NCBI GenBank assembly: GCA_937884235.1
Contig: CALGBT010000425.1
Span: 1 to 36,049 of the forward strand
DNA: 36,049 nucleotides
Direction of reading: 5' to 3'
Origin: an uncultured Pseudomonadota bacterium
GTDB taxonomy: Bacteria > Myxococcota_A > UBA9042 > CAIXZC01
Of this stretch, positions 5,546 through 35,627 are shown piece by piece. The notes below the pieces were generated by a model. It did no database searches. It was not told the origin of the DNA and saw only the letters and a program-made list of their open reading frames with translations. The position numbers were made by a program, and so were the translations under genes. Within the stretch, counting starts at the first letter, position 1; every line of letters begins with the position of its first letter.

Positions 5546-6046
5546 GTGGCTGATCAGAAACTGCTGCAGGCGCTGACCGATGCCATTCGGGCAGAGGTGG
5601 AAGGACATTCATTTTACTTGATGGCCGCCCAAACCACGGCGGATAAGCAGGGGCAAGAGGTCTTTGAACGACTCGCCCAAGAGGAGCTGAAACACGCTGC
5701 CTTTCTGCGGAGCCAGTACGATTCACTGCTCTCCTCCGGCAAGGTCTCCGAAGCCAAACTGGGCGTGCCAGACTTCCCCGCCGGATCGATGATCTTCTCC
5801 CCCGAGTTGCGAAGCAGGGTCAAGGAAGCAAACTTCGAAGTCACCGCCCTCTCCATCGGCGCTCAACTGGAGCAATCAGCCATGGTTTTCTACGCCGACC
5901 AGGCCGCGGCCGCAGAGGACCCCGCAGTCGCCAGCTTCTTCACCGACCTATCAGAGTGGGAACGCGAGCACTATCGCTTACTCACAGGCCAGCTCGCGGA
6001 ACTGCAACATGATTTCTGGGGCGCCAACCGCTTCTCGCCTTTCTAG
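5546..6046 (+). CDS. Rubrerythrin/ferritin-like di-iron four-helix-bundle protein
   Basis: GTG start preceded by GAGGGG. Paired carboxylate/His motifs: AEVEGHSFY, QEELKHAAFL, LEQSAMVFY, EWEREHY. Confidence 0.85.
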   Translation: MADQKLLQALTDAIRAEVEGHSFYLMAAQTTADKQGQEVFERLAQEELKHAAFLRSQYDSLLSSGKVSEAKLGVPDFPAGSMIFSPELRSRVKEANFEVTALSIGAQLEQSAMVFYADQAAAAEDPAVASFFTDLSEWEREHYRLLTGQLAELQHDFWGANRFSPF

Positions 6047-6067
6047 CCACCGGGCTCGGAGAAGCCG

Positions 6068-6583
6068 ATGTTCAAACTGACAGCCATCCAGGCTGACATC
6101 ACAACGCTACAGGTCGACGCCATCGTCAACGCGGCCAACCGCACTCTGCTGGGCGGTGGCGGAGTCGACGGCGCCATCCATCGACGCGCCGGCCACGAAC
6201 TACTGACACATTGCCGACGCCTTGACGGTTGCGCCACTGGCGATGCGAAGATTACCCCCGGCTTCAATCTGCCGGCACGGTTCGTCATCCATACCGTCGG
6301 TCCCGTCTGGAGCGGCGGCGACTCGGGCGAACCGGAATTGCTGGCCAGTTGCTACCAGAGATCGCTCGAGTTGGCCGAAGAACACCGCCTCAAATCCATC
6401 GCCTTCCCGGCCATCAGCGCAGGCGTCTACGGCTATCCGCTGGAGCTTGCGACGCACATCGCAGTCACGACCGTCGGTAATCACCTGACCGGCAAAGACT
6501 CCGACCTTCAAGTCACCTTCTGCTGCTTCTCCGCCACTGCGTTGAAAATCTACGCCAGCGAACTTGAAGCACAATCGAACTGA
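6068..6583 (+). CDS. ymdB: Macro-domain O-acetyl-ADP-ribose deacetylase (YmdB family)
   Basis: GDITTLQVDAIVNAAN..LLGGGGVDGAIHRRAG...HTVGPVW...IAFPAISAGVYGYP closely follows E. coli YmdB as I remember it. SD GGAGAAG lies upstream. Confidence 0.9.
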   Translation: MFKLTAIQADITTLQVDAIVNAANRTLLGGGGVDGAIHRRAGHELLTHCRRLDGCATGDAKITPGFNLPARFVIHTVGPVWSGGDSGEPELLASCYQRSLELAEEHRLKSIAFPAISAGVYGYPLELATHIAVTTVGNHLTGKDSDLQVTFCCFSATALKIYASELEAQSN

Positions 6584-7366: not shown

Positions 7367-9757
7367 ATGAAGATCATCCTTATCGGAGCAGAACTCGAAG
7401 AAAACCTGGCCGTTCGCTATCTCGCCCCGCCCCTGCTTGATGCCGGACACGAGGTAGAGATCATTGCCTTTGACGACCCGTCGCAGCAGCTTCGGCTGGC
7501 CCGGGAGTTGGCCGAGAAGAAGCCGGACGTCATCGGTATGTCAGTCGCCTTCCAACACCGCTTGACCGACTTCCGCAATCTCGCTCGGACGCTGCGCAGC
7601 GCTGGCCTCGAGAGTGTCATCGTCTGGGGCGGGCATATTCCCACCGCCCGGGCCGGGCAGATTCTTGAAGCCTATCCCGAGGTGGACATCATCGTTCGCC
7701 ACGATGGCGAGGAGACCCTCCTTGAGTTGGTCGCCGCCCTGGACGGAAACTCGCTGGGAGTTGCAGAGGGTCCCAGAGAGGTGACCGGCCAACTGCTCCT
7801 GACACTCAAAGAGATCAAGGGACTGGCCTTCCGTCTGCCCGGCGGCAAGCCCGGCATGACCCCGGCGCGCCCCGCGCCGCGCAACCTCGATGAAATCGAT
7901 ACCCCCTGGCGGCAGGGCAAGCCCGCCCGCCACGGCGGCCTCGGCTTCTCGCCCATCCTCGGCAGCCGCGGCTGCTGGGGAAGCTGTACCTACTGCTCCA
8001 TCCAGACCTACCACCGCGGTCGGGGCGGCCCCCGGGTGCGCCTGCGAGAGCCCACCGCCATCGCCGCCGAAATGGCCGAAATGTACCATCACGACCAGAC
8101 CCGCATCTTCTGCTTCCACGACGAGAACTTCTTTCTGCCAAAGCCAGACCACACCCTCGCTCGCCTGCGGGAGATTCGCAGTGAACTCGACCGACGAGGG
8201 GTCGGCAAAATCGGCATGGTCGCCAAATGCCGACCCGACGAACTGAGCCCGAAGCTCCTTGGCGAAGCCCGCAAGATGGGGCTGATTCGCGTCTACGTGG
8301 GCATCGAAAACGGCTCCCAGGCCGGCCTCGACCACCTCGGCCGCAACACCAACGTCGAAACCTGCGGCCACGCCCTCCAGATGCTGCGCGACGCTGACGT
8401 TTACGCCTGCTACAACGTCCTGCTCTTCGAACCCGACACCACCCTCACCGACGTCTCCGAAAATCTTGCCTTCCTCAATGAGAACTCGGATTTCCCGTGG
8501 AACTTCTGCCGCACCGAAATCTATCCCGGGTCGTTCATGGAGCAGAGCCTCAAGGCGCAGGGCCGCCTGCGCGGTGGCCTCGAAGGCATGACCTACACCA
8601 TCGCCGACCCCCGGGCCGAACTGCTCTTCAGAATCAGCGCCATCGCCTTCTCGGGCCGCAACTTCGGCACGCAGTCCACTGCCAATGCCGCCAGCGGCGT
8701 CCGGTACCTGGCTGCTGTGCTCGACCACTTCTACGGTGGCCGCCAGGCCCGAGCCTTCTTGCGCAGTTCCAACGAAGTGACCCTGAGGCTGGGCCACGAT
8801 ACCCTGACCCGACTCACCCTCGCCCATGACTTCGTGGCCAGCGGCGAAACCAGACCCGGCGAAATCACCCGCTTCACCGCCGAACTGGCCCGCCAGGTTG
8901 CCATCGCCGATGCAGAGTTCTGGCCCGCCCTCGAAACCCTCCGAATCGAGATGAATCGCTATGGCTCCAGACACGCCCCTGCCCTGCTGGCACCTTCCAT
9001 GGGACGACAAGCTCTGGCGAAGACCGCAGCACTGCTGGCCGCCGCCGGGCTGGCCGGCGTCGCGTGCGACAGCAAGACGACGGTCATGGACCCGGTACCT
9101 GGCGACCTGCGGGACAACCAGGACATCATGGTCATGGATCCGCTGCCGGATGACGTCACCGGTCAGCAGGACGTCATGGTCTACGATCCCCTGCCGCCAG
9201 ACGTCATCGAGCAGGACTACATGGTCGTCGACCCCCTGCCCGAAGATGCCTTTGAGCAGCAGGACTACATGGTGGTCGACCCGCCGCCTCCCGACGTTGT
9301 TGAGCAGGACTACATGGTGGTCGACCCACCGCCCCCGGACGTCACCGACACCGTGGAACAGGAAGACATCATGGTCATGGACCCACTTCCTCCTGACATC
9401 AAAGAAGAGGACGCCGGGGAGAAGAAGGACGTGCCGCCCCCGGTAGACCCACCGCCACCAGACCAGTCCGCCTTCGAGCCCGCCCAGCCGGGGAGCCCCG
9501 CAGCACTGCCACTGGACCGCGGCTTCAGAGTCAAACTGACCACCGAAACCATCAATGGGGCCATCCACTTCACCACCCGCTGCACCGGCACCGCCGAACC
9601 AACCCTGCAGTGGACCTGCCGCGGCGGCACCATGGAGGCCACCGGCACCACCGCCATCTTCCGACCAACCGGCACCGGACCCGCCATGGTCCAGGTCCAC
9701 GCCCGCGCCGGCCAGCACCTCCTCGATGTTGCCACCTGGCTGCCTCACATCGCCTGA
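7367..9757 (+). CDS. B12-binding-domain (class B) radical SAM enzyme with a C-terminal membrane segment, tandem-repeat region and beta domain
   Basis: SD AGGAGA. N-terminal Rossmann/B12-binding module (MKIILIGAELEENLAVRYL, DVIGMSVAF, VIVWGGH). CWGSCTYC (CxxxCxxC) at nt 7973-7996. ENFF, VGIENGS. Hydrophobic ALAKTAALLAAAGLAGVAC at 9011-9067. Repeats at 9083-9466. Confidence 0.9.
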   Translation: MKIILIGAELEENLAVRYLAPPLLDAGHEVEIIAFDDPSQQLRLARELAEKKPDVIGMSVAFQHRLTDFRNLARTLRSAGLESVIVWGGHIPTARAGQILEAYPEVDIIVRHDGEETLLELVAALDGNSLGVAEGPREVTGQLLLTLKEIKGLAFRLPGGKPGMTPARPAPRNLDEIDTPWRQGKPARHGGLGFSPILGSRGCWGSCTYCSIQTYHRGRGGPRVRLREPTAIAAEMAEMYHHDQTRIFCFHDENFFLPKPDHTLARLREIRSELDRRGVGKIGMVAKCRPDELSPKLLGEARKMGLIRVYVGIENGSQAGLDHLGRNTNVETCGHALQMLRDADVYACYNVLLFEPDTTLTDVSENLAFLNENSDFPWNFCRTEIYPGSFMEQSLKAQGRLRGGLEGMTYTIADPRAELLFRISAIAFSGRNFGTQSTANAASGVRYLAAVLDHFYGGRQARAFLRSSNEVTLRLGHDTLTRLTLAHDFVASGETRPGEITRFTAELARQVAIADAEFWPALETLRIEMNRYGSRHAPALLAPSMGRQALAKTAALLAAAGLAGVACDSKTTVMDPVPGDLRDNQDIMVMDPLPDDVTGQQDVMVYDPLPPDVIEQDYMVVDPLPEDAFEQQDYMVVDPPPPDVVEQDYMVVDPPPPDVTDTVEQEDIMVMDPLPPDIKEEDAGEKKDVPPPVDPPPPDQSAFEPAQPGSPAALPLDRGFRVKLTTETINGAIHFTTRCTGTAEPTLQWTCRGGTMEATGTTAIFRPTGTGPAMVQVHARAGQHLLDVATWLPHIA
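9083..9466 (+). repeat. In-frame tandem coding repeats (7 units of 15-19 aa, 45-57 nt) within the rSAM ORF
   Basis: Units: VMDPVPGDLRDNQ / DIMVMDPLPDDVTGQQ / DVMVYDPLPPDVIEQ / DYMVVDPLPEDAFEQQ / DYMVVDPPPPDVVEQ / DYMVVDPPPPDVTDTVEQE / DIMVMDPLPPDIKEE, followed by DVPPPVDPPPPDQ. Confidence 0.9.
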
Positions 9758-14901: not shown

Positions 14902-16698
14902 CTACAGTTGCTTCAAAGCAGTAGCGGGCATCAGCGTGAAATGAAAGGTCGACCCCTTGCCCGGCTTTGATTCGGCCCAGATCTTGCCGCCGTGACGCTC
15001 CACAACGCGCTGGCAGACGGCCAGACCGATTCCCGTTCCCTCAAACTCCCGAGGATTGCAGACACGCTGGAAGATCCGGAAGACCCGTTCACTGTCCCGC
15101 ATGTCAAAACCGATGCAGTTGTCCTCCACCGAAATCTGCCAGAAATCTCCGACTCTCTCAGCCCCAATTCGGACAACAGAAGGTAATTCGCTCCTGAACT
15201 TGATGGCATTGGCAATGAGATTCTGGAAGAGCTGACCGAGCAGCCCATTGTGCCCCAGCACCGAGGGCAACGCCGGCGAAAGCTCGACGGTGGCGCCCGC
15301 CTCATCAATGTTCGCGTGGAGACTTAGCCTGACCTGCTCAACGACCTCGCGCAGATCCACTGGCAGGAGGGTCGCAGCCCGGGTGCCGGCACGAGAGTAC
15401 TCGAGCAGATCGAGGATGAAGCGGTTCATGTGAGTCGTTCCATCAACGGCATGCCGGATGTATTTGTGCGCACCCTCGTCAAGTTGGTCCCCGTACTTGC
15501 GAACCAGCAAGCCCAGGAATCCACTGACGGTGCTGAGCGGCCCCTGAAGGTCATGCGAAACCGTGTGGGCAAACTGCGTCAGATCGGCGTTAGACCGCTC
15601 TAGCTCCTGTACCTTCTCAACCAACTCCCGCTCAGCCCGTCGGCGCGCGGTTTCGGTCCGGGCATTGGAGATGGCTAGACCGCAGAGATTAACGATGGCA
15701 AGCGCAAGATTAAGGTAATCGCCAACACGATCCGAGATGGGGAGTTCGCGCACCAGCAGAACCCCCAGATCCGCCTCACGAAAAGAAACCCTGACGGCAA
15801 AGCCGCCCGACAACATCGCATAGGCATCGCCAGGCCGTAGCGCCCGAAGGCACCCCGACACCTCGTCGTAGCGGACGGGGACCGAGCGAGTGGAACGAAT
15901 CTCACCATACCCCCCACCGTCAACGGGCACATAATCGACACAACCAGCTCCAGTCAACATCGAGAAAATCTCAAGGACCTTTTCCACGGCCTCATCCTCA
16001 CCCATGGTGCGGGTGAGTTCGGCGAGGAGATCGAAGGTCATCGCCTGCTGGGCAACCAGAGAATCGCTACGGCTACTCGCCGCCCGAAAATCCGCGGCAT
16101 GGCAGTTGAGCCGCCACTCAAGAATGGCCTTCTCCACGTGCAGACGCATTACCTCCAGGCCAACATCATGAGTCTCCCCTGGCAACCCGAGGTACTCGCA
16201 AAACTCCTTGAACTCGCCACCGCTCGGGCGCGCAACGCCAGTCTCCAAGAGGACAATGCGGGAGATACTCTCGCGAAAGAACTCCTGGGCGTGTTGCTGG
16301 TCAAAGCCCCATCCGTCGATGCGCTGGCGCCATTGGTCGAGCCAACCGGGCGTAAGCAGATAGGCCCCTTCTGCCTGGAGTTGCCGCACCCATTTCGAGT
16401 TGGCGAAGAGCGAAAAGCAGGAATCGACTGCATGGACGGCGGTGGGAGAAAGAGCATCGAGTACATCACCGGTCCTGCTGACACAACAGAATCCCAGGAC
16501 AATGAGGTCTTCGTCCTCCGGTCGGCGGGAGAAGCCTCGCAGAGCCTCAAGTTCTTCCGGGGTCAGGGTAGCGTTGGACTGGGTGCAACCCGCACGATAG
16601 CTGCCTACCCCGACATTGTCGTAACCCTCTGCCTCAAGGACCTCACGCACCTCCCTGAGATAGTGGTGACAGACGATGATCTGCAGTCGCCGAACCAT
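14902..16698 (-). CDS. Sensor histidine kinase with N-terminal DUF1638-like domain and GAF-like domain
   Basis: The ATG at 16698 overlaps the upstream stop (TGATG); the track starts at a GTG 3 nt upstream. N-terminus: LQIIVCHHYLREVREVL...LIVLGFCCVS...VDSCFSLF...AYLLTPGWLDQWRQ, DUF1638-like from memory. H-box HTVSHDLQGPLSTV, N-box LFQNLIANAIKF, G-boxes DNCIGF and GTGIGLAVCQRVVERHGGKIW. Confidence 0.9.
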   Translation of the reverse strand: MVRRLQIIVCHHYLREVREVLEAEGYDNVGVGSYRAGCTQSNATLTPEELEALRGFSRRPEDEDLIVLGFCCVSRTGDVLDALSPTAVHAVDSCFSLFANSKWVRQLQAEGAYLLTPGWLDQWRQRIDGWGFDQQHAQEFFRESISRIVLLETGVARPSGGEFKEFCEYLGLPGETHDVGLEVMRLHVEKAILEWRLNCHAADFRAASSRSDSLVAQQAMTFDLLAELTRTMGEDEAVEKVLEIFSMLTGAGCVDYVPVDGGGYGEIRSTRSVPVRYDEVSGCLRALRPGDAYAMLSGGFAVRVSFREADLGVLLVRELPISDRVGDYLNLALAIVNLCGLAISNARTETARRRAERELVEKVQELERSNADLTQFAHTVSHDLQGPLSTVSGFLGLLVRKYGDQLDEGAHKYIRHAVDGTTHMNRFILDLLEYSRAGTRAATLLPVDLREVVEQVRLSLHANIDEAGATVELSPALPSVLGHNGLLGQLFQNLIANAIKFRSELPSVVRIGAERVGDFWQISVEDNCIGFDMRDSERVFRIFQRVCNPREFEGTGIGLAVCQRVVERHGGKIWAESKPGKGSTFHFTLMPATALKQL

Positions 16699-17381
16699 CA
16701 CGCCTCTTGGGGGATCACGGGAGGCCGCACAAAAGCCTCATCTAACATCTGGCGCACGATATGAACTGCATCACTCGCAGCTACTCCGCAGGCATCGGCA
16801 CCAACTTCCCGCCAAAGCTGGTCGTCGATGCGAAATGGAGCGCCCCCCACAACCACCGCAGTATCCGGGCTCTCTTCACGTAAGCGAGCAATGACCTGCT
16901 TGACCCGGATGGCTGAGGGCAGCATGAGCACCGAGATGAGGAGCACCTTAATCTGCTCCTCACAGACCCGCTTGACCAATGTCTCCAGCGACACAGAGCC
17001 ATAACAACTGACTGCGAAACCGGCAACTCGCAACGCGGAACAGACAATACGCTGCCCCAACAGGTGCGAATCCTCGAATACCGCAACTGCGATCTGCGGC
17101 ATTGAAGCTCCACCTGCAGTCTCAGCAGCAGGACCGGGTAGTCCATTCAGGATCTCCTCGCAGAGACGACCGCTCATGTAGACCTGGGCTAGCGACACCC
17201 GGCCCGTCTCCCAGCCCTCCCCGATACGCTCGAGGACAGGAACCAGCAGGGCCTCCACATTCTCAAGGGAAAGCTCCTGTCCACCCCTCACGATCAACCC
17301 CTGTACAGACACCCGGTCGACCGCGAGCAGGGCCTGCTCCAGTTCATCCAGCAAAGACAGATTCTGCAGAATCCCAGTCAT
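16698..17381 (-). CDS. Stand-alone corrinoid (cobalamin)-binding protein: helical cap plus B12-binding Rossmann domain
   Basis: Cap region LVPVLERIGEGWETGRVSLAQVYMSG. DxHxxG present as D-S-H-L-L-G (nt 17055-17072). SxL (ISVL) and GG (VVVGGAPF) motifs present. 227 aa, the size of MtaC/MtbC-type corrinoid proteins. Confidence 0.85.
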   Translation of the reverse strand: MTGILQNLSLLDELEQALLAVDRVSVQGLIVRGGQELSLENVEALLVPVLERIGEGWETGRVSLAQVYMSGRLCEEILNGLPGPAAETAGGASMPQIAVAVFEDSHLLGQRIVCSALRVAGFAVSCYGSVSLETLVKRVCEEQIKVLLISVLMLPSAIRVKQVIARLREESPDTAVVVGGAPFRIDDQLWREVGADACGVAASDAVHIVRQMLDEAFVRPPVIPQEA

Positions 17382-17589
17382 GGCCCTTTCCCCCCACTCT
17401 CGGAAAACCTTCCTGGCAAATCGCCGGACTCAAATTGACCCAGGTTTCTGCCAGCTACAAAACAAAAGCACCAACCCTTAGTATTGGAACATCCAGGAGC
17501 ATAGTAACACAGAGATCGCGGCAGGCAACGCCCTAACTCCCCCCCCACAAACACCACCCAGCAATGCAACTGCGAAAAAGCCCAAAACA

Positions 17590-17631
17590 GCGGACGCGCC
17601 GCCAGATTTTCTTCTGATATCTGACACTTAG
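17590..17631. promoter_or_regulatory. Conserved 42-nt element, copy 1, 208 nt upstream of the corrinoid-protein/kinase operon
   Basis: GCGGACGCGCCGCCAGATTTTCTTCTGATATCTGACACTTAG matches 20248-20289 at 35/42 positions in the same orientation. Confidence 0.5.
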
Positions 17632-17677
17632 AAAACTGCAGTGCCGTCATGAAACAGGATTGAGAGGTCGCTGAATC

Positions 17678-18355
17678 CTATGGTCGCGGGAGCGGCCGCA
17701 GCATGCGTGAATCCAGCAGTCGCTTGAGCCGACGCCGCATCTTCCGCTGCTGCGCCTCTGTGAAGATGCGTTCCCTCGCAGGGACGGGGACTGGTGCCCC
17801 CTTGGTCATGATGCTGACGGCATCCTCGCTGTGGGGCAGGCCGAAGTAATGACCTAACTCGTGAACCAGAGTATGGGGCCAAGCGATGGCCGAGAGGATG
17901 ATCCACCGGTGACTCGTCTGCTGGCGGTCCCGCCAGTGCACCCCGTAGATCTCGCCAGGCTCGTCCACATTGTCGAGCCGCCCGGTGACAAAAACGTGGA
18001 TGGCGTTCTTTGACCAGCGGGTCCGTCCCAGACCATCCCGCGCCGCGCGATCCGCGACCCGTAGGCAATCGGTAGGCAACACCTCTGCAGCAACCACTTC
18101 AAAAGCGACCTCAAGGGGGGCAAAGAGCCGGTTGGCATTGCTCACCTGACTGGCAATCCAATCACTTTCCACCACCGGTACACCGTCCTTCACAGCAACG
18201 TACAGGTGAATGCCCAGGCACGTCTTCGCTGCGGCAGGACAACTGCCCGCCGCAGCCCCATAGTCCGGCAACCCGGATTCGCCAGCCAACAGTGGAACAG
18301 ATAGCATCAAGACCGCACAGAATGGCCCGAATCTGGCACCGGAAATCAATTGCAT
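17678..18355 (-). CDS. Secreted zinc metalloprotease, metzincin with matrixin (M10A)-like signature
   Basis: Signal peptide MQLISGARFGPFCAVLMLSVPLLAG. HELGHYFGLPHS matches HExGHxxGLxHS. A Met-turn candidate SIM lies downstream. The ATG at 18355 sits 10 nt inside the upstream gene and is preceded by GAGGGAAG. Confidence 0.85.
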   Translation of the reverse strand: MQLISGARFGPFCAVLMLSVPLLAGESGLPDYGAAAGSCPAAAKTCLGIHLYVAVKDGVPVVESDWIASQVSNANRLFAPLEVAFEVVAAEVLPTDCLRVADRAARDGLGRTRWSKNAIHVFVTGRLDNVDEPGEIYGVHWRDRQQTSHRWIILSAIAWPHTLVHELGHYFGLPHSEDAVSIMTKGAPVPVPARERIFTEAQQRKMRRRLKRLLDSRMLRPLPRP

Positions 18356-20010
18356 CTTCCCTCAAAGCAACTGCTCCCCAGTGGACAGTCTTCGGGGTCA
18401 GCCCAGATGGCCAGGCCGTCTGCAGGACTGCACTGAGCCTGCTTCAACTGCCCGGCGCTGTTGCAGAAGTCGGTGACGTGGACCCCGTCGATATCGTCAA
18501 CCACTCCCTGGACTGTCGGATCGTCCGACTTGTCGCTATCCTGGCAGGCGACACAGCGAGCCGCCTCAAAGGAGTCACGGCAGAAGTAGCCAGCAGGGCA
18601 TGGGATGATCACCTTGCTCAAGGACTCGCCATCGCAAAAGCGCTCTTTCACCACCTTGGGATCGTCGGTGCAATCGTCATGAAGGTTACTGGTATTGCCG
18701 CACACGTCACTGGTAGCGTAGACGGCCCCCCCGACGAGAACATTCTTGCCGCCGTCAGTATCGAAACAACCGAACTTGCACGTATCCTGGACAGTCGAGT
18801 CCTTCACGCAGGCCCCATCAATGCAGGCTTCGTCCTCGAAACAGTCGTACAGCTCCGAAGTCATCGCTTCGCCATTCGAGATGCACCGGTATTGCAGGAC
18901 CTTCTTCTCGATGAGCAGTTCGCCAGGGTTCGCCATGTTCTCGGCATAGAACCATGAACATTTGTCGGGATAGTATTGGGGCGGGCCACCTTCCGGAGTA
19001 AATATCAGCTGACCCGAGAGATAGATGTTGTCAGCGGGATCACTGTCTTTGCAAGTCTTGGCTTCCACATCGGGGCCAGGCCCTTCGGACTCCTCACAGA
19101 CCCCGAACTCACACTCATCGCCTTCGTCGCAGGGAACAAGAGTAGGATTGAGCTTCACGGTCTCCTTGAGTGGGGGCAGGGTCGTGCCCGTGTGCAAGGG
19201 ACAGACGAAGGAATTGACCTGCACATGGTCATAGCTGCACCCATCTGTGATCAACCAGGTTTCCCCGGTGGTTGGACTGTACAGGAAGATCTTGCCAGCG
19301 ACCTCATCATTCCGCTCAGCGGGAGGCTCGGTATCGGTGCAGATAAATCCCCCACACATTCCATCACCACACAGAACCTCTGGGTCACATACACTGGCAT
19401 CGGAATGAAAGGTGCCGTCCTCGTTGCAGTAGTAGTAGTCAACCGTGTAGGCATCCTTGCAGACGGAGATGTGAGTCTTGCCATCTTCGTTCGTCCACAC
19501 GCTCCCGCCAGGGTGCGGAGCCTCGGCCTCAGGTTCGGTGCACAACACCACGCTGTCTTCCACGCACTCGCCCATCTCGCAGTTGCACTTGATGTAAACC
19601 GGCTCCAACTCCGAAGGTTCGGTCTCCGGTCCGTGGTACCCCACGCACGTCACCTCCTTCAACATCCCATTTGGACCAGTTATCTTGCATTCGTCATAGA
19701 GCAAAACGAGCAGCCCGTTCTCGTCGGTATAGACCACATACCCGGCCTGGAGGTAGTTGTTGGCATCGTCCGTATCAACGCAGCCATTCTCAAACACCGG
19801 TGCGGGCCCGGAGTCTGCCGCACCACCCGCGTCGGAACTGCCCGTCGGCAGCTCCTCCACCAACTGGTCGAGATACTCCGCCTCCCATCCGTCAGGACTC
19901 TCACTTGCAACAGAATCCCCTGTCTGGTTTGCCGGGAGAATGCGCAGGCAGGAACCGGCCAGAAACACTGGCGCCAGCAGAACGGGCAGCAATCTGCCAA
20001 CTCTGTTCAT
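18346..20010 (-). CDS. Lipoprotein made of six Cys-rich ~70-95 aa modules (unnamed family)
   Basis: MNRVGRLLPVLLAPVFLAGSC has a lipobox, followed by an acidic linker. Six modules begin at CVDTDDANNY, CTEPEAEAPH, CTDTEPPAER, CKDSDPADNIY, CFDTDGGKNV and CQDSDKSDDP. Each ends in C..G..C..G.C. Confidence 0.85.
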   Translation of the reverse strand: MNRVGRLLPVLLAPVFLAGSCLRILPANQTGDSVASESPDGWEAEYLDQLVEELPTGSSDAGGAADSGPAPVFENGCVDTDDANNYLQAGYVVYTDENGLLVLLYDECKITGPNGMLKEVTCVGYHGPETEPSELEPVYIKCNCEMGECVEDSVVLCTEPEAEAPHPGGSVWTNEDGKTHISVCKDAYTVDYYYCNEDGTFHSDASVCDPEVLCGDGMCGGFICTDTEPPAERNDEVAGKIFLYSPTTGETWLITDGCSYDHVQVNSFVCPLHTGTTLPPLKETVKLNPTLVPCDEGDECEFGVCEESEGPGPDVEAKTCKDSDPADNIYLSGQLIFTPEGGPPQYYPDKCSWFYAENMANPGELLIEKKVLQYRCISNGEAMTSELYDCFEDEACIDGACVKDSTVQDTCKFGCFDTDGGKNVLVGGAVYATSDVCGNTSNLHDDCTDDPKVVKERFCDGESLSKVIIPCPAGYFCRDSFEAARCVACQDSDKSDDPTVQGVVDDIDGVHVTDFCNSAGQLKQAQCSPADGLAIWADPEDCPLGSSCFEGRCN

Positions 20011-21850: not shown

Positions 21851-22237
21851 CTAGGGCTCCACCAGATCGAACTTCAGCTCCGGCGGGTGGGTTAGAGTAT
21901 TGTGCACCGTGCAGGCCTTGATAATCCGGGAGAGACTCGCCCGTTGGCGCTCCGTGAGCGGTACCGGCAGGTTCACCCGCACGTCAAAACTGCCGATGCG
22001 GTGCGGGTTTTGCGCCTGCGCCCAGTCCACGTCCACCACCAGGCCGTCAGTAACAAGCTCGTTGCGCTGCATGTAGTCGGCAACGAAGACTCCGACGCAA
22101 GAGCCCAACGATGCCGCCATGAAATCCACCGGAGCCAATCCCTCGTTGTTCCCAACGGGGCGAGGCTGGTCCGTTATCACCTTGATTCCGCGGTGCTCGA
22201 TTTCGAACTTGTATCCCTTCACATGTCGAATCTGCAT
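21851..22237 (-). CDS. OsmC/Ohr family protein
   Basis: 128 aa. APVDFMAASLGSCVGVF and IIKACTVHNTL carry the two conserved Cys regions of OsmC-like proteins. SD GGAGG. Confidence 0.88.
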   Translation of the reverse strand: MQIRHVKGYKFEIEHRGIKVITDQPRPVGNNEGLAPVDFMAASLGSCVGVFVADYMQRNELVTDGLVVDVDWAQAQNPHRIGSFDVRVNLPVPLTERQRASLSRIIKACTVHNTLTHPPELKFDLVEP

Positions 22238-22415
22238 GGCAAGTACCTCCGTTACCTACAACAATAGAGCCACCAGAGTGCCCAGAGGTTACCGGCGCCA
22301 GATATCCCTACCGCCTGCTCGTTGCTTTGCTTCGGCCTCCCGGGCCCCAATTGGTCTTGTTGAACTCGAAGGCCTATATTCTCCATTGGCAAACGCTTCA
22401 ACGAGGAGGCCACGC

Positions 22416-23252
22416 ATGAGAACAACCGGATTTGGGACGGTCTTCCTGGGGGCACTCGCAACCATAGCTCTAGCATGTTCTGCAGTGAGTTGCTCAAGCG
22501 GAGATGGCCCTTCACCATTTGACTTGAGCACAGCCGACGTTGCTTCGGACAGCGCGGATGAACCGCTCGAAATCGAGACCACAGCCGACATCACAGATGA
22601 CACAGGAGGTGACTCGGCGCAGGAAGAGCTGCAGACGGAGTCGCCCGATCAGACGACAGAGGATGGGTCATCTGACGTTCCGCTACAGCCCGAAGACGTC
22701 ATGGACGCGTCCGGGACCGACCTGGAACCGATGACCTGTATTCCCACGCAATCTGACGCCCAGGGACCATATTACCTTGCCGGGGCTCCCTTCAAGAATC
22801 CCATCGCAGACCCTGACGAGCCAGGCCCACGAATTGTCCTCGCCGGCCACGTCGGTGACACCACCTGTACGGGCATCGCCGGGGCCGTCGTGGACATCTG
22901 GCAGACTGATGCGCAGGGGCTCTATCCCACAGCAGAAGAGGGCTTCAGACTGAGGGGAAAGGTCACCGCAGATGAGGCGGGGAACTACTCCTTTGAAACG
23001 GTGCTTCCAGGGTTCTACGAGGGGCGCCCTCGACACGTGCATGCGAAAGTGTCCGGACCCGGATTCGGTACGCTGACGACCCAGATCTACTTCGCCGGAG
23101 ACCCCTACTTGTGGCCCAATGACTCCTGCGGACCCCCAACTTGCCATTCCGACGACTCCGACCGCATTATCGAATTGCACGAAGAGACCATCAACGGTGT
23201 CAAGAAGCAGATAGGGGCACTTGATTTCACGTTGTCTCCGGAGCTCCAGTAG
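22416..23252 (+). CDS. Lipoprotein with intradiol-dioxygenase-like (Dioxygenase_C fold) domain
   Basis: ATG at 22416 after AGGAGG. MRTTGFGTVFLGALATIALAC has a lipobox, followed by a ~90-aa acidic linker. AQGPYYL..., GAVVDIWQTDAQGLY, LRGKVTADEAGNYSFETVLPGFYEGRPRHVHAKV. Confidence 0.85.
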   Translation: MRTTGFGTVFLGALATIALACSAVSCSSGDGPSPFDLSTADVASDSADEPLEIETTADITDDTGGDSAQEELQTESPDQTTEDGSSDVPLQPEDVMDASGTDLEPMTCIPTQSDAQGPYYLAGAPFKNPIADPDEPGPRIVLAGHVGDTTCTGIAGAVVDIWQTDAQGLYPTAEEGFRLRGKVTADEAGNYSFETVLPGFYEGRPRHVHAKVSGPGFGTLTTQIYFAGDPYLWPNDSCGPPTCHSDDSDRIIELHEETINGVKKQIGALDFTLSPELQ

Positions 23253-23475: not shown

Positions 23476-23610
23476 CACAGATCAGGTGTACCTTACAGCC
23501 TCCGGGCCGAGAGCGCCTGTGCCGGATGCGGTGCTCCGTCATTCACGGTTGAAAACCGTCATTGGCTGCCATAGCATCAAATCGGATGTTTTTTGCAAGA
23601 GGAGGAAGAT

Positions 23611-25983
23611 GTGAATCGCTTCGTATCTGTCATACTCGTTGTCGCTCTGACTGGCTGCTCAAGCTCTTCGTCCAAATCACCCGACGCGATTGACCTTGCC
23701 GGGACCAAGGATGCCAATGACGATGTCCCGTTTGTCCGCACCGATACTGGTGGCGACGATTCGGTCGTCGACCTGATCGTGTTGCCGGATGCTACTGACG
23801 TCCCGGCCCCCTTCGACACTGTTGAGATTGAGGACGCACACCCAGCGGACTTGCCTGACACCGCAACAACTGATCCTGGCGATACCGCCACCACAGAGCT
23901 GCTCGATGCCAGCAACGACGACTCAACATCCCAGGACCTCGCCCCCTTTGACCCGCAGCTTCCCAATCCCATTCCCCTCGACGACGACCCCCTGGTGCGG
24001 ATGCCCGGTACCCAGCATACCGATGGCCTGGAATTGGAGGAGTCGGCCAACTGCCTCCTTTGCCACGGCAAGTTCGCCAATGATGGCGTAGAGGTCGGTA
24101 GCCGCTGGGCCGGAAGCATGATGGCCCAGGCCTCCCGAGACCCCATCTTCCTGGCCTCCATGACCGTGGCCCTGCAGGATTCCAGGTGGGTGTTGGGCAA
24201 CTACAACGCCGGCGACCTCTGCCTCAGGTGCCACTTCCCGGGTGGCTGGGTAGCTGGGCGTTCCGAGCCCACCAACGGTACGGCCATGAAACTCGGAGAT
24301 ACGGATGGCGTGAGCTGCGACACCTGTCACCGCCAGTTTGATCCACACTTCGTGGCCACCTACGAGGGGGAGCGAGAAGGCAACGACTGGCTGAACATCT
24401 GGGACGAGACCAACACCTCCGAGACGCCCAGCCAGGCGGCGGCTGAGAGCACTCTCGATGCCGACAAGGTCGAGGCCGATGGCATCAAGCTCTTCAACGG
24501 TGAAGCCGCATTTGGCGCAGACCACCGCCCCGTCGAAGCCGGCTGGAATGAGGCTGGCGGTGGCCAGTATTTCATCGCTCAAAATGGTGCCAAGCGAGGG
24601 TCATTCGCCGATGCCAACGCTACCCATCCGGTCCAATACAGCCGCTTTCACAAGAGCCGGTACATGTGTGGTTCCTGCCACGATGTCTCAAATCCGGTCC
24701 TAGCGAACCTCGCCCAGGCCGAAACCTTGCCGGAGGATGGCGAAACCGTCCTCGTCAGTGAAGCAGAACCGGCATACGCATACGAACCGGTGGAGCGCAC
24801 TTTCAGCGAGTTCATGCTCTCGAAGTTCGGGCAGAACGGCGGCGCGGCCGGCAGCGGTGCCTTTGCTCCCGACACCTTCACCACGTCCCTGCCCGGCAAC
24901 AAGATCGGACGGTGCCAGGACTGCCACATGGCCGACCTCAGCGGCAAAGGGGCGATCCTCCCCGAGGCAGTGCTGAGACCCGACGAAAGCACTGAGCATC
25001 CGGGCAGCGGCATGCCAGGCCACGACATGGTGGGGGGCAACGTTCTCGTCCCTACTATCCTGGCCAGCACCGACCCAGCCTCCACAAACTTCGACCAGAC
25101 CAATGCTGATCTGTTGGGGAAGGGGCCCGAAGTCCTGATGCTGGACCTCAAAGCCGGCGTGGCCATCGAAGGCAAGTTGCTCCTGGCTGCAGCCGCCCGT
25201 GCCCAGGCTTTCCTGGAACAGGCCGCGACCATCGAAGAGGCCTCCTACGCACCCGACTCTGGCGACACCACCTTCAAGGTCGTCAATCATACCGGCCATA
25301 AGCTGATTACCGGATTTGCCGAGGGGCGGCGCATGTTCCTCAACATCAAGCTGTTTGCCGGCGAGGAGCTGCTCCACGAAATCAATCCCTACGCCGCCGC
25401 TGTCGGCACCCTCAAGGGGCTGCCCCACGAGGTCTCGCAGGATTCGCCAGATCTCGGACCCAACGAGAGCTACCATCCCGAGCTGGTCTACGAGATGCAC
25501 CACTCCAGCGCCCTGACCCAGGAAGACGAGACCTTCCATTTCGTGCTGGGCACGAGCGTCTGGAAGGACAATCGTATCCCGCCGGCTGGTTTCGACATTG
25601 TCCAGGCTGAAGTCCGCAAAGCCATTCCCCACTGGGAGGGCAAGGCCGAGCCAGATTATTTCACCGCCGAGGAGTATGCAGGTGGCTACGACCTGGTTCA
25701 GATCGAACTGCCGACCAACGGTTCGCTCCTCGAAATTCGCCTCTACTACCAAACCACCAGCAGGGAGTACGTCGAGTTTCTGCGTGACGAGATCAACGGA
25801 ACAGCCTCCACCCTCGCTTCACCTACACCCAGCGGCGCCGACCAGGCCTACGTCGCGCAACTCGATCCCTTCCTTGCCCCGCTCAAAACCTGGGGCGATA
25901 CCATCTGGCAACTCTGGCTGCACAACAAAGACATGCCCGGGGCCGCACCACTGCTGATGGCAGAAGAGATTGTGGCGTACTAG
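23611..25983 (+). CDS. Multiheme c-type cytochrome lipoprotein (5 CXXCH)
   Basis: GTG at 23611, 5 nt after AGGAGG. MNRFVSVILVVALTGC has a lipobox, followed by a ~110-aa acidic linker. CLLCH 24052-24066, CLRCH 24220-24234, CDTCH 24316-24330, CGSCH 24667-24681, CQDCH 24913-24927. The C-terminal ~340 aa has no heme motif. Confidence 0.9.
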   Translation: MNRFVSVILVVALTGCSSSSSKSPDAIDLAGTKDANDDVPFVRTDTGGDDSVVDLIVLPDATDVPAPFDTVEIEDAHPADLPDTATTDPGDTATTELLDASNDDSTSQDLAPFDPQLPNPIPLDDDPLVRMPGTQHTDGLELEESANCLLCHGKFANDGVEVGSRWAGSMMAQASRDPIFLASMTVALQDSRWVLGNYNAGDLCLRCHFPGGWVAGRSEPTNGTAMKLGDTDGVSCDTCHRQFDPHFVATYEGEREGNDWLNIWDETNTSETPSQAAAESTLDADKVEADGIKLFNGEAAFGADHRPVEAGWNEAGGGQYFIAQNGAKRGSFADANATHPVQYSRFHKSRYMCGSCHDVSNPVLANLAQAETLPEDGETVLVSEAEPAYAYEPVERTFSEFMLSKFGQNGGAAGSGAFAPDTFTTSLPGNKIGRCQDCHMADLSGKGAILPEAVLRPDESTEHPGSGMPGHDMVGGNVLVPTILASTDPASTNFDQTNADLLGKGPEVLMLDLKAGVAIEGKLLLAAAARAQAFLEQAATIEEASYAPDSGDTTFKVVNHTGHKLITGFAEGRRMFLNIKLFAGEELLHEINPYAAAVGTLKGLPHEVSQDSPDLGPNESYHPELVYEMHHSSALTQEDETFHFVLGTSVWKDNRIPPAGFDIVQAEVRKAIPHWEGKAEPDYFTAEEYAGGYDLVQIELPTNGSLLEIRLYYQTTSREYVEFLRDEINGTASTLASPTPSGADQAYVAQLDPFLAPLKTWGDTIWQLWLHNKDMPGAAPLLMAEEIVAY

Positions 25984-35532: not shown

Positions 35533-35627
35533 AAAAGGCTCCTGACAACGGTCTTCTTCGGCCATTCTACAACGGCGAAATGAAAACTAAAAGGTCCATG
35601 GAGAGATCGGGGGACGGGGGGATAGCT

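Follow-up and report, generated by a model that had tools for sequence, protein, structure and literature searches.

The stretch of DNA that we analyzed (referred to here as the window) comprises the 36,049 nt of contig CALGBT010000425.1 (assembly GCA_937884235.1), from an uncultured bacterium of the GTDB lineage Myxococcota_A. On its reverse strand lie two translationally coupled genes, the first of which encodes a 227-aa corrinoid protein with a B12 cap and a B12-binding domain, while the second encodes a 598-aa protein consisting of DUF1638, a predicted GAF-fold domain, HisKA and HATPase. A first-pass annotation made from the sequence alone had proposed this pair as a candidate cobalamin-linked sensor, and the observation on which that proposal rested is confirmed by our analysis. 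The features of the locus are as follows:

16698..17381 (-), corrinoid (cobalamin-binding) protein gene, 227 aa
17148..17354 (-), helical cap (B12-binding_2), aa 10-78, including G54-E-G-W57 and Q66-V-Y68
16788..17084 (-), Rossmann-type B12-binding domain, aa 100-198, with DxHxxG at 17055-17072, SxL at 16926-16934 and GG(AP) at 16836-16847
16701..16742 (-), C-terminal tail of the corrinoid protein (DEAFVRPPVIPQEA), the retained 3' end of a deleted URO-D/MtaA-like gene
16696..16708 (-), translational-coupling junction, with AAGAGG (16703-16708), the TGA stop (16698-16700) and the ATG start (16696-16698)
14902..16698 (-), orphan sensor histidine kinase gene, 598 aa from the ATG (a GTG one codon upstream is also in frame)
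16105..16698 (-), DUF1638 domain, aa 1-198, with conserved Cys10, Cys38, Cys71/72 and Cys94, T116-P-G-W-L, W123 and LL(D/E)TG 150-154
15658..16086 (-), long linker helix plus predicted GAF-fold domain, aa about 205-347, ending in the conserved AISNAR helix that leads into the kinase core
15385..15582 (-), HisKA dimerisation/phospho-acceptor domain, with His382 at 15553-15555
14932..15243 (-), HATPase_c catalytic domain, with the N box at 15196-15225, the atypical G1 box D-N-C-I-G within 15106-15126 and the G2 box at 15016-15039
17382..17677, upstream intergenic region, the presumed promoter of the two-gene operon

The corrinoid protein

Profile searches against Pfam, which the first-pass annotation had named as a test of its domain calls, gave scores above the gathering cut-offs for both domains of the corrinoid protein, namely PF02607 (aa 10-78, 36 bits against 23, E=8.4e-9) and PF02310 (aa 100-198, 53.6 bits against 32.1, E=2.5e-14), and no other domain, such as a MerR-type DNA-binding domain, was found in the 227 aa. 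The cobalamin-binding motifs are present as D104-S-H106-L-L-G109, S150-V-L152 and G179-G180. As D104, H106, G109, S150, G179 and G180 are each present in 55 of 56 family sequences, and L152 in 53, the family is inferred from sequence to bind cobalamin His-on. In the cap, W57, Q66, Y68, M69 and E75 are conserved in at least 93% of the 56 family sequences, and W57 is followed by ETGRVSLAQ and then V67-Y68, with no E-H pair at that position. The protein keeps all 37 positions that are at least 90% conserved in 55 corrinoid proteins of the cassette described below.

Its nearest solved relatives are MttC (7xcn, E=9e-12) and MtmC (3ezx, E=5e-10), while AerR (7te2, E=2e-4) and CarH are far weaker matches. 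Among curated NCBIfam models, those of methyltransferase-cognate corrinoid proteins score best, although all remain far below their cut-offs (TIGR02370, 59.9 bits against 215.3, E=2e-16; MtbC, 49.9 against 350; MtgC, 45.6 against 310). The CarH model NF052513 gives 39.8 bits against a cut-off of 400.

The sensor kinase

The kinase matches PF07796 (DUF1638, aa 62-185, 46 bits against 27), PF00512 (HisKA, 39.4 bits against 26.9, E=6.3e-10) and PF02518 (HATPase_c, 86 bits against 26.4, E=3.1e-24), and contains the strings LIVLGFCCVS, VDSCFSLF and AYLLTPGWLDQW, from which DUF1638 had first been recognized. It is 70%, 60% and 58% identical to three related proteins that are also 598 aa long (P0002, P0003 and P0004). 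An AlphaFold2 model of the DUF1638 domain alone (pLDDT 88.7, pTM 0.84) shows an alpha/beta fold that spans aa 1-198, for which we found no significant match in the PDB either by fold or by sequence. The four Cys positions (10, 38, 71/72 and 94) are conserved in 143, 142, 120 and 142 of 148 sequences, respectively, and each sits at or just after the C-terminal end of beta-strands 1-4 of the model. In an alignment with 11 short, stand-alone DUF1638 proteins retrieved from metagenomes, C10, C72, C94, T116-P-G-W-L and W123 are invariant, and LLD-x-G is also shared, although the window has E152 where 142 of 148 sequences have D.

For the middle domain, no Pfam GAF model was detected at E<=0.1. An AlphaFold2 model (pLDDT 85.7, and 85-93 in this region) matches the solved GAF domains 3p01, 4y2f and 4g3k by Foldseek with target-normalised TM of 0.58-0.63 and probability 1.0, yet it should be noted that this rests on a prediction and not on a structure. 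Conserved residues in this region are E234, G299, F300, Y328, N345 and R347. In the kinase core, the H-box SHDLQGP (aa 381-387), the N box (QNLIANAIKF) and the G2 box (GTGIGL) are present. The G1 box, however, is D526-N-C528-I-G530 rather than the canonical DxGxG, with 85 of 89 family kinases having Gly where this one has Cys528.

The junction between the two genes reads ...AAGAGGCGTGATGG, such that the TGA stop and the ATG start share one base, with a Shine-Dalgarno-like AAGAGG upstream. In the upstream intergenic region, no Rfam family (cobalamin riboswitch included) and no sigma-70 consensus match was found, while a weak terminator-like hairpin at 17580-17595 (-) follows the preceding gene. 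No response regulator, or any other REC-domain ORF, and no URO-D/MtaA-like ORF occurs in any of the six frames of the window. The B12-dependent radical-SAM gene to which the first-pass annotation had drawn attention is real (7367..9757 (+)) and lies 5.1 kb away on the other strand, but it is not a conserved partner, as only 2 of 126 ORFs flanking related cassettes are of this kind.

A three-gene cassette in related genomes

To place the pair in context, we examined the gene neighborhoods of related sensor genes. All five close or moderately close homologues first examined have a corrinoid-protein gene, then a gene for an MtaA/CmuA-like URO-D-fold protein, and then the sensor gene, with overlapping stops and starts. 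In GTDB genomes, 45 of 54 related sensor genes, from more than 10 phyla, show this order, and all 54 have a corrinoid-protein gene and/or a URO-D-like gene immediately upstream on the same strand. A corrinoid-protein gene of the same subfamily lies just upstream of the sensor gene in 49 of the 54, whereas in the other five only the URO-D-like gene is seen, and three of those are cut by a contig end. Four loci present a stand-alone DUF1638 protein, then the corrinoid protein, then the sensor, so that corrinoid protein plus DUF1638 sensor is the near-constant core. The window ORFs belong to this group, with the corrinoid protein scoring 374 bits against the cassette corrinoid-protein HMM and the sensor scoring 452 bits against the module profile and keeping 25 of 27 conserved module positions. 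Hosts are mostly anaerobes of sediments, groundwater and reactors (Desulfobacterota, Anaerolineae, Aminicenantes, Riflebacteria, Kiritimatiellia and Coprothermobacterota). We found no description of this cassette in the searchable literature.

The DUF1638-GAF module behaves as an N-terminal input domain with interchangeable outputs. A profile of its 344 positions finds 1039 cluster representatives at E<=1e-30, and nearly all of the best 150 carry the whole module at or within about 35 residues of the N-terminus. Among 73 of these, we counted 52 with HATPase_c (with HisKA, HisKA_2, HisKA_3 or HWE), 8 with GGDEF, 2 with HD-GYP, 18 with PAS and 9 with REC. The genes flanking the cassettes are variable and rich in other signalling proteins, with REC occurring in 17 of 126 flanking ORFs. 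No RamA/DUF4445 gene and no corrinoid-type methyltransferase (URO-D/MtaA, MtrH, MtaB) appear among the 25 commonest families of flanking genes, and the corrinoid and URO-D-like proteins are therefore not part of a catabolic operon.

The URO-D-like protein is the most conserved component, with 60.5% mean pairwise identity, as compared to 48.2% for the corrinoid protein and 32.3% for the sensor module. It matches TIGR01463 (E=1e-26 to 1e-30), although at 93-105 bits against a cut-off of 235. As it lacks the His-x-Cys...Cys zinc site of MtaA ('hiCG' is 'lASG', and the second Cys aligns with His316), its methyltransferase activity is uncertain.

Loss of the URO-D-like gene in the window

The first-pass annotation reported that the window holds no methyltransferase, yet it missed that the pair is a truncated form of this cassette, with the partner being present in all close relatives. 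Here, a deletion of about 1 kb removed the URO-D-like gene, leaving only its last 10-14 or so codons (about 42 nt), which are now read as the tail of the corrinoid protein. This tail resembles the C-termini of the URO-D-like proteins of relatives (in the relative L004, ...EAVHEYGRYPIVPREA*), whereas the corrinoid proteins of relatives are 215-217 aa and lack it. At the DNA level, the tail aligns with the last 15-40 or so nt of those genes, and about 1.03 kb is missing relative to L004. Relatives have the same GGGAGGnATGATG junction between the URO-D-like gene and the sensor gene, and the retained codons keep the ribosome-binding site and the TGATG coupling. The deletion appears in at least 8 contigs from at least four samples, and the operon is nucleotide-identical in the one that spans it (L007).

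Interpretation

The interpretation offered by the first-pass annotation, that the corrinoid protein works with the DUF1638-GAF kinase as a cobalamin-linked sensor rather than as a CarH-type light switch, is partly supported, in that comparative data favor this core idea while other elements do not hold. Its statement that DUF1638 has no assigned function is partly outdated, as a DUF1638 gene directly downstream of a B12-cap/B12-binding gene is required for the split methionine synthase of Phaeobacter inhibens and co-occurs with a RamA-like activator (PMC5764234).

With moderate confidence, we consider the pair to be a derived two-gene version of a widespread three-gene corrinoid-based signalling cassette. 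In the ancestral form, this would encode a small corrinoid protein that binds cobalamin His-on, of the type that serves methyltransferases, a strongly conserved MtaA/CmuA-like URO-D-fold protein, and a signalling protein in which DUF1638, with a four-Cys site, is followed by a predicted GAF-fold domain and joined by a signalling helix to an output domain. In this view, DUF1638 would dock on the corrinoid protein and read the chemical state of its cobalt (Co(I), Co(II) or alkyl/methyl-Co(III), or holo versus apo), the change would pass through the GAF domain and the AISNAR helix to the kinase core, and the URO-D-like protein would set that state by adding or removing a methyl group in response to a small molecule. 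With the URO-D-like gene deleted, the remaining pair could only report what the corrinoid protein undergoes on its own (oxidation/reduction or cofactor loading), or what a partner encoded elsewhere does to it, and the signal would go to an unlinked response regulator. It should be considered that while the domain identities, the conserved cassette, the swapping of outputs and the deletion are established by our analysis, cobalamin binding, the physical contact between the proteins, the cobalt state that is sensed, the signal molecule, the metal site and every biochemical step of the mechanism are inferred. Indeed, gene adjacency would also fit a kinase that merely regulates or matures a corrinoid enzyme, the most conserved component of the cassette is the one missing here, the DUF1638 fold has no informative structural match, and this copy, which has evolved about twice as fast as its nearest relative and has an atypical ATP-lid motif, may be losing function.

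Alternative explanations

A first alternative, which we consider unlikely but which cannot be excluded, is that in this particular genome the pair is a decaying remnant, with loss of the URO-D-like gene having inactivated the sensor and the two remaining genes drifting. In addition to this loss, the lineage evolved about twice as fast as its sister (67 unique changes against 35 in the kinase, p=0.0015, and 23 against 9 in the corrinoid protein, p=0.013), the substitution in the ATP-lid G1 box is unique, two deviations (D152E and P322S) occur at conserved sensor positions, and no partner response regulator is found in the 36 kb. However, both reading frames are intact over 2.5 kb, the deletion endpoints preserved the frame, the Shine-Dalgarno sequence and the coupling, and all 37 conserved corrinoid-protein positions, the four Cys, the TPGW motif, the phospho-acceptor His and the N and G2 boxes are kept. 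Furthermore, zero to two deviations is the normal range for family members, cassettes without a URO-D-like gene exist naturally in another clade, and the faster rate could be genome-wide in this lineage. The pair still looks constrained, although partial loss of function remains possible.

A second alternative, slightly less likely still, is that no sensing occurs through the corrinoid. DUF1638 would then be a maintenance or maturation domain for the corrinoid protein (for example, for cofactor loading or for electron delivery in reactivation, as proposed for stand-alone DUF1638 in split methionine synthase), the real signal would be bound by the GAF domain or by downstream PAS domains, and the corrinoid and URO-D-like proteins would be a small enzyme system that happens to share an operon with its regulator. 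In favor of this, stand-alone DUF1638 is genetically required for a B12 enzyme and co-occurs with RamA-like reductive activators (PMC5764234, PMC12478193), the four conserved Cys could hold an Fe-S cluster suited to electron transfer, and GAF and PAS domains are classic ligand binders. Against it, DUF1638 is the N-terminal domain directly in front of the GAF domain and the signalling helix, which is the position of an input domain, the outputs include GGDEF and HD-GYP, which do not regulate an adjacent operon transcriptionally, and the cassettes lack a second methyltransferase, an activator and any conserved metabolic neighbor. An enzyme-maintenance domain fused to more than 1000 different signalling proteins would, moreover, be without precedent.

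The least likely alternative is a B12-based light sensor, in which light would cleave the Co-C bond of a photolabile alkyl-cobalamin (MeCbl or AdoCbl) held by the corrinoid protein and so change its interaction with DUF1638-GAF and the kinase activity, with the MtaA-like protein of the full cassette re-alkylating the cofactor to reset the dark state in a neat photocycle; although domains with this cap-plus-Rossmann architecture are proven photoreceptors (CarH; AerR; photocobilins, PMC11796333) and predicted partners of signalling domains (photoglobin, PMC8717448), only one of the four elements of the published light signature (GxxW, EH, GxxH and GxxxP; PMC11796333) is present by our own reading of the motifs, namely GxxW (G54-E-G-W57), as the E-H pair is absent from the window's protein with the flanking Q66 and Y68 being conserved in the family, the His ligand sits in E-D-S-H and the GG region is G-G-A-P, while the CarH model scores far below its cut-off, the nearest solved relatives are methyltransferase corrinoid proteins, and none of the 53 record titles of the mostly anaerobic hosts names a phototroph.

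Comparison with known systems

The corrinoid protein has the same two-domain build, with helical cap, Rossmann domain and the DxHxxG...SxL...GG motifs, as methyltransferase-cognate corrinoid proteins with MtaA/CmuA-type partners (MtaC-MtaA, MtmC/MtbC/MttC-MtbA, CmuA, and bacterial O-demethylase corrinoid protein plus methyltransferase), which are its best sequence matches, and in relatives the next gene is likewise of the MtaA/CmuA family. In contrast to those systems, no substrate-specific MT1, second methyltransferase or RamA/RACo activator is found nearby, the URO-D-like protein lacks the HxC...C zinc ligands, the third gene encodes a signalling protein, and in the window the methyltransferase-like gene is deleted.

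In the split methionine synthase of P. inhibens and Ruegeria pomeroyi (PGA1_c13340, SPO2162), a DUF1638 gene likewise lies directly downstream of a B12-cap/B12-binding gene and is genetically tied to the function of that corrinoid protein (PMC5764234, PMC12478193). There, however, DUF1638 is a roughly 200-aa stand-alone protein in a biosynthetic enzyme system that co-occurs with a RamA-like activator, whereas here it is fused to a GAF domain and a kinase, with no MetH parts present. Of the four Cys positions, three (10, 72 and 94) are shared by all 11 short DUF1638 proteins in our alignment, which did not include the P. inhibens sequence itself, while in the three most distant of these, Cys38 is replaced by a Leu-His and a C-terminal Cys is added.

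AerR/PpaA-CrtJ/PpsR presents the same logic as that inferred here, namely a small stand-alone cap-plus-B12-binding protein whose cofactor state controls a separate signalling protein through protein-protein contact. The partner in our case is, however, a DUF1638-GAF kinase and not a PpsR/CrtJ repressor, and while AerR senses photolysed or hydroxy-cobalamin in phototrophs, this family lives mostly in non-phototrophic anaerobes and is paired with an MtaA-like protein. In CarH/LitR AdoCbl photoreceptor repressors, as well as in photoglobin and photocobilin B12 sensors, a cobalamin-binding domain is also used for signalling, being linked in the latter two to kinases and GGDEF domains (PMC8717448, PMC11796333), yet here there is no MerR DNA-binding domain and no photoglobin or bilin-binding domain, Wx9EH is not kept, and the B12 domain is a separate polypeptide. 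Finally, the kinase resembles in build the cofactor-based cytoplasmic sensor kinases (NreB and AirS with Fe-S, DosS/DosT with haem-GAF, and FixL), which are likewise soluble kinases with no membrane segment and in which an N-terminal cofactor-dependent input domain precedes a GAF/PAS domain and a HisKA-HATPase core. There is no sequence or fold relationship between DUF1638 and the PAS domain of NreB, and the cofactor proposed here sits on a separate protein, although the four-Cys site of DUF1638 could, by analogy only, act like the Fe-S sites of NreB and AirS.

The corrinoid-protein and kinase genes of the window

The two reading frames recognized in the first-pass annotation are present as described there, and its observation therefore holds. 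The features of the window to which we refer below are as follows.
16698..17381 (-): corrinoid-protein gene, 227 aa, with a B12-binding_2 cap (aa 10-78) and a B12-binding Rossmann domain (aa 100-198)
14902..16698 (-): sensor kinase gene, 598 aa from the ATG
15106-15126: G1 box of the kinase, with the Cys528 codon at 15115-15117
17378-17650 (-): 90-aa ORF, whose stop overlaps the start of the corrinoid-protein gene (ATGA)
7367..9757 (+): B12-binding radical-SAM protein gene, 796 aa
9829-14892 (+), 30925-35565 (-) and 18346-20010 (-): very large Cys-rich, presumably secreted proteins
23593-25983 (+), 22119-23252 (+) and 5546-6583 (+): other genes, unrelated to the finding as far as seen

Both domains of the 227-aa protein score above the Pfam gathering cut-offs. 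The protein carries D104-S-H106-L-L-G109, S150-V-L152 and G179-G180, while W57 is followed after nine residues by V-Y rather than by E-H. The kinase matches DUF1638 (PF07796, 46 bits against a cut-off of 27), HisKA and HATPase_c. The junction between the two genes reads AAGAGGCGTGATGG, such that stop and start share one base behind a Shine-Dalgarno-like hexamer. The stretch between DUF1638 and HisKA is not detected by any Pfam GAF model, although an AlphaFold2 model of aa 1-347 (mean pLDDT 85.7) places a predicted GAF fold there, which matches solved GAF domains (3p01, 4y2f and 4g3k) with a target-normalized TM of about 0.6.

As the first-pass annotation had stated, no response regulator and no methyltransferase-like (URO-D-like) ORF exists in any of the six frames of the window. 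The B12-radical-SAM gene that it mentioned is real, and about 440 aa at the C-terminus of the encoded protein have no Pfam match. Nonetheless, we reject this gene as a functional partner, as only 2 of the 126 ORFs flanking related cassettes are of this type. On a Nitrospirota contig (L002, 3855-6187), a B12-binding radical-SAM gene and a class I SAM methyltransferase gene lie just upstream of a GGDEF-type cassette, echoing the gene in the window, but the association is rare overall. The 90-aa ORF is called as a gene in one public assembly (L010) and is rich in Cys, Trp and Phe but, as relatives have no counterpart upstream of their corrinoid-protein genes, it is probably spurious. A search against Rfam found no cobalamin riboswitch, nor any other family, upstream of the operon or anywhere in the window, and a search for a sigma-70 promoter or a clear terminator around the operon gave nothing above chance. 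Of the three Cys-rich proteins, one has BACON_2 plus NosD/beta-helix domains, one has five Dicty_CTDC repeats and one has no Pfam hit. A Dicty_CTDC/CAP protein also flanks the cassette in L001, a Myxococcales relative, which fits a Myxococcota origin for the window. The other genes encode a 796-aa protein with weak multihaem cytochrome c7/c3 matches, an intradiol-dioxygenase-like protein, a rubrerythrin and a macro-domain protein.

Loss of a URO-D-like gene from a three-gene cassette

The N-terminal 370 aa of the kinase retrieved relatives at 70%, 60% and 58% identity, all of 598 aa, as well as more distant proteins in which the same N-terminal region is fused to GGDEF or HD-GYP domains or stands alone. 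We examined the contigs of five of these relatives, including a Nitrospirota GGDEF protein. In every one of these, the sensor gene is preceded by two genes with overlapping stops and starts, the first encoding a cap-plus-B12-binding protein of roughly 215 aa and the second a URO-D-family protein (PF01208) of roughly 350 aa. NCBIfam places this second protein nearest the MtaA/CmuA methyltransferase family, but far below the cut-off (93-105 bits against 235).

The window lacks this middle gene. When aligned with the locus of the 70% relative (L004), about 1.03 kb is missing. The corrinoid protein of the window is 10-12 residues longer than its relatives, and its extra tail, which ends in DEAFVRPPVIPQEA before the stop codon, resembles the C-terminus of the URO-D-like proteins (EAVHEYGRYPIVPREA before the stop codon in L004). 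At the DNA level, the last 15-40 or so nt before the kinase start align with the 3' end of the URO-D-like genes, including the GGGAGGnATGATG junction. The deletion thus fused the end of the corrinoid-protein gene to the last 10-14 or so codons of the URO-D-like gene, and this kept the ribosome-binding site and the translational coupling of the kinase.

The same 227-aa protein is on record in at least 8 contigs, of which we retrieved four, from four separate ENA assemblies. In each of these, it is followed directly by the kinase start. The one contig that spans the whole operon (L007) is nucleotide-identical over it, and the other three, which are partial, carry an identical corrinoid-protein gene and junction. 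The deletion is therefore not an assembly artefact, although this identity also means that the contigs offer no variation from which a within-population dN/dS could be derived. Two scans of JGI metagenome contigs for closer relatives, or for other lineages with the deletion, found none in the first case and in the second only re-found L005, a locus that had already been retrieved.

Distribution and organization of the cassette

To assess how general the cassette is, a profile of the 344-position DUF1638-GAF module was searched against 1.84 billion cluster representatives, yielding 1831 proteins at E<=1e-3 and 1039 at E<=1e-30. Nearly all of the best 150 carry the whole module, at or within about 35 residues of the N-terminus, in proteins of 359-1403 aa. 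The Pfam domains of 73 of 148 representatives are summarized below. An N-terminal module joined to interchangeable outputs is how an input (sensor) domain behaves.

Pfam domains found among 73 proteins carrying the DUF1638-GAF module (domain, number of proteins).
DUF1638, 72
HATPase_c, 52
HisKA, 40
PAS, 18
REC, 9
GGDEF, 8
HisKA_2, 6
HWE, 5
HisKA_3, 2
HD-GYP, 2

A DUF1638-GAF protein (P0012, 423 aa, from a contig of sample ERZ1426829) has no enzymatic output and ends in a Cys-rich tail (PICAYCKKVRDDKGYW...HGICPICF), which looks like a short zinc-binding output module. A REC gene and a hybrid kinase gene follow it.

A scan of one genome per GTDB species, based on an alignment of 6 sequences, gave 53 loci. 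These come from Desulfobacterota (including cable bacteria, Desulfobacter, Desulfatitalea and Dethiosulfatarculus), Geobacter/Geomonas, Myxococcota, Chloroflexota, Verrucomicrobiota/Kiritimatiellia, Actinomycetota, Riflebacteria, Spirochaetota, Acidobacteriota, Nitrospirota, Bacteroidota, Veillonellaceae and Coprothermobacterota, with the closest hit being an uncultured Myxococcales MAG. We then built HMMs from the proteins of the cassette itself and scanned the flanks of the 54 sensor genes.

Arrangement upstream of the sensor in 54 sensor genes (arrangement, count).
Corrinoid protein, then URO-D-like (same strand, contiguous), 45
Cut by a contig end, 4
Electrothrix order: URO-D-like, then corrinoid protein, 2
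Corrinoid protein only, or stand-alone DUF1638 then corrinoid protein, 2
URO-D-like only, no corrinoid protein detected (L015), 1

One of the four truncated loci, also from Electrothrix, shows a corrinoid protein only. The permuted order URO-D-like, corrinoid protein, sensor is that of cable bacteria (Candidatus Electrothrix; L041 4051-6981, L042 4074-6990 and L039). In L042, the corrinoid protein matches as two pieces, which suggests a frameshift or an assembly error. A second cassette type, in which a stand-alone DUF1638 protein (204-252 aa) is followed by the corrinoid protein and then the DUF1638-GAF kinase, without a URO-D-like gene, recurs in four loci (L006 4606-7779, L055 4585-7011, L071 3430-6716 and L072 211-3440), and in some cases is embedded among multi-PAS hybrid kinases. 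The near-constant core is therefore the corrinoid protein plus the DUF1638-GAF sensor, while the third partner varies. No GTDB representative shows the arrangement of the window in the clade that normally has the URO-D-like gene.

The 126 ORFs flanking the cassettes share no metabolic theme. The commonest families are HATPase_c (18), REC (17) and PAS, and neither a RamA/DUF4445 activator nor a corrinoid-type (second) methyltransferase appears among the 25 commonest families. The cassette looks self-contained and dedicated to signaling. The kinase of the mec (dichloromethane) cassette was also considered as a relative but was rejected, as it is a PocR-domain kinase.

Sequence features of the components

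In the corrinoid protein, six cobalamin-ligand motif residues are each present in 55 of 56 family sequences (L152 in 53), and W57, Q66, Y68, M69 and E75 of the cap in at least 54. The nearest solved relatives by sequence are MttC (7xcn) and MtmC (3ezx), a Moorella corrinoid protein (1y80) and the Desulfitobacterium O-demethylase corrinoid protein (4jgi), while AerR and CarH are marginal matches. This points to methyltransferase-type cobalt chemistry rather than to CarH-type photochemistry.

The URO-D-like protein (e.g., L004 4958-6001 and L002 6950-8011) is the most conserved component, with 60.5% mean pairwise identity across phyla, as compared to 48.2% for the corrinoid protein and 32.3% for the sensor module. 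It does not, however, keep the HxC...C zinc ligands of MtaA. 'HiCG' is replaced by a conserved A-S-G (present in at least 52 of 55 family sequences), and the second zinc cysteine aligns with His316 of a conserved D-N-H-G-E-I-P motif. It is thus a distinctive clade, probably still an enzyme or a specific ligand binder, and probably not a thiol methyltransferase.

DUF1638 on its own models well (pLDDT 88.7, pTM 0.84) as an alpha/beta domain but has no significant structural or sequence match in the PDB. The best structural matches were the PrpR N-terminal domain (TM 0.45, E=0.01) and arylmalonate decarboxylase (E=0.005), and a sequence-profile search of the PDB gave only spurious hits. Four cysteines are conserved, namely C10 in 143, C38 in 142, C71/72 in 120 and C94 in 142 of 148 sequences. 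In the model, each sits at or just after the C-terminal end of beta-strands 1-4 and, from this placement alone, we infer a metal or Fe-S site. A search with a DUF1638-only profile returned only 11 short stand-alone proteins and did not reach the alphaproteobacterial DUF1638 proteins of the literature. The three most distant short DUF1638 proteins in our alignment keep C10, C72 (as C-H-P) and C94, replace C38 with Leu-His and add a C-terminal Cys.

Previous reports on DUF1638

DUF1638 occurs in only a handful of papers in the literature that was searched. Price et al. (PMC5764234) showed that a DUF1638 gene directly downstream of the B12-cap/B12-binding gene is required for the three-part methionine synthase of Phaeobacter inhibens. 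It co-occurs with a RamA-like activator, and the authors offer no specific function. A 2025 paper (PMC12478193) refers to the Ruegeria homologue as 'predicted to enable reductive recharging of cobalamin'. The statement of the first-pass annotation that the domain has no assigned function is thus partly outdated, and the link between DUF1638 and small corrinoid proteins has independent genetic support.

Proposed mechanism and alternative readings

The interpretation offered by the first-pass annotation, a cobalamin-linked sensor that is unlikely to be a CarH-type light switch, is partly supported, being right in its core but incomplete, as the locus is a deletion derivative of a larger cassette. 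What the analysis itself establishes is a corrinoid protein of methyltransferase type with the His-on motifs, a conserved MtaA-like partner, an N-terminal DUF1638-GAF input module (its GAF fold being predicted) with swappable outputs, tight operon coupling and a host range that appears mostly anaerobic. From these, we infer, as the most likely mechanism, that the corrinoid protein binds cobalamin, that DUF1638 docks on it and reads the state of its cobalt (oxidation state, or presence of a methyl group), and that the URO-D-like protein sets that state in response to a small molecule. The change would be transmitted through the GAF domain and the conserved AISNAR helix to the output. In the window, the state-setting partner is gone, and the pair would then report only intrinsic changes of the corrinoid protein (oxidation/reduction, or cofactor loading), or depend on a partner encoded elsewhere. 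The clade that carries a stand-alone DUF1638 instead of the URO-D-like protein shows that the core can exist without the latter.

Whether the copy in the window is still functional should also be considered. Both frames are intact, the deletion preserved the coupling, and the corrinoid protein keeps 37 of 37 conserved positions and the sensor module 25 of 27 (the deviations being D152E and P322S), which is within the range of 0-2 deviations seen in other members. The H, N and G2 boxes are likewise intact. On the other hand, Tajima relative-rate tests show about twice as many unique changes in the window lineage as in its sister, with 67 against 35 for the kinase (p=0.0015) and 23 against 9 for the corrinoid protein (p=0.013), although the cause could be genome-wide rather than specific to these genes. 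Moreover, the G1 box of the ATP lid reads D-N-C-I-G instead of DxGxG. Of 89 kinases in the family, 85 have Gly at that position, 2 have Ala and this is the only Cys (the remaining one is a pattern mis-hit). We consider decay unlikely, yet possible.

A reading in which DUF1638 only maintains the corrinoid protein, while the GAF domain binds the real signal, cannot be excluded, although it fits poorly with the constant N-terminal position of DUF1638, the c-di-GMP outputs and the lack of any metabolic context. A light sensor is possible but disfavored, as the EH element is missing, the relatives are of methyltransferase type, and the hosts appear non-phototrophic and mostly anaerobic.

There is a substantial chance that the full cassette represents a new sensing principle. 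In a further-reaching reading, which we regard as less likely than not, it would be a new class of cytoplasmic chemoreceptor in which signal perception is a chemical reaction on a protein-bound cobalamin. In this view, the MtaA-like enzyme would methylate or demethylate the dedicated corrinoid protein in response to a small methyl donor or acceptor, or the cobalt would be oxidized or reduced, and DUF1638, as a metal-containing reader of the corrinoid state, would convert the resulting state into kinase, diguanylate-cyclase or phosphodiesterase output. The same reader function would explain why stand-alone DUF1638 is needed by split methionine synthases, and the window would be a natural variant that has lost the enzyme and senses only the intrinsic redox or loading state. 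If the reading is right, it would add a dark, chemistry-based mode of B12 signaling, would give DUF1638 its first mechanistic role and with it a testable explanation for its requirement in split methionine synthase, and would identify what may be a major redox or methyl-compound sensor in sulfate reducers, cable bacteria, Geobacter relatives and Anaerolineae. The copy in the window, which lacks the MtaA-like gene, and the clade that carries a stand-alone DUF1638 instead are natural dissections of the system.

Comparison with known cobalamin-based systems

Cobalamin is known as a signaling cofactor only in light sensing (CarH, AerR and photocobilins) and in riboswitches. In the literature that was searched, we found no paper describing DUF1638 fused to signaling domains, or describing this cassette. 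The nearest published ideas are the photoglobin-B12 and photocobilin sensors (PMC8717448, PMC11796333). The light signature published in the latter is GxxW, EH, GxxH, GxxxP, of which, by our reading of the sequence, only the GxxW element is found here. The cassette, with at least 1000 sensor-protein clusters across more than ten phyla and with hosts that nearly all appear to be anaerobes, pairs a methyltransferase-type corrinoid protein and an MtaA-like protein with a previously unrecognized input module that feeds two-component and c-di-GMP signaling. The locus in the window is a deletion derivative of a large, conserved and apparently undescribed corrinoid-linked sensor family, which combines two kinds of system that are already known, namely B12-protein signaling and corrinoid methyltransferase pairs.
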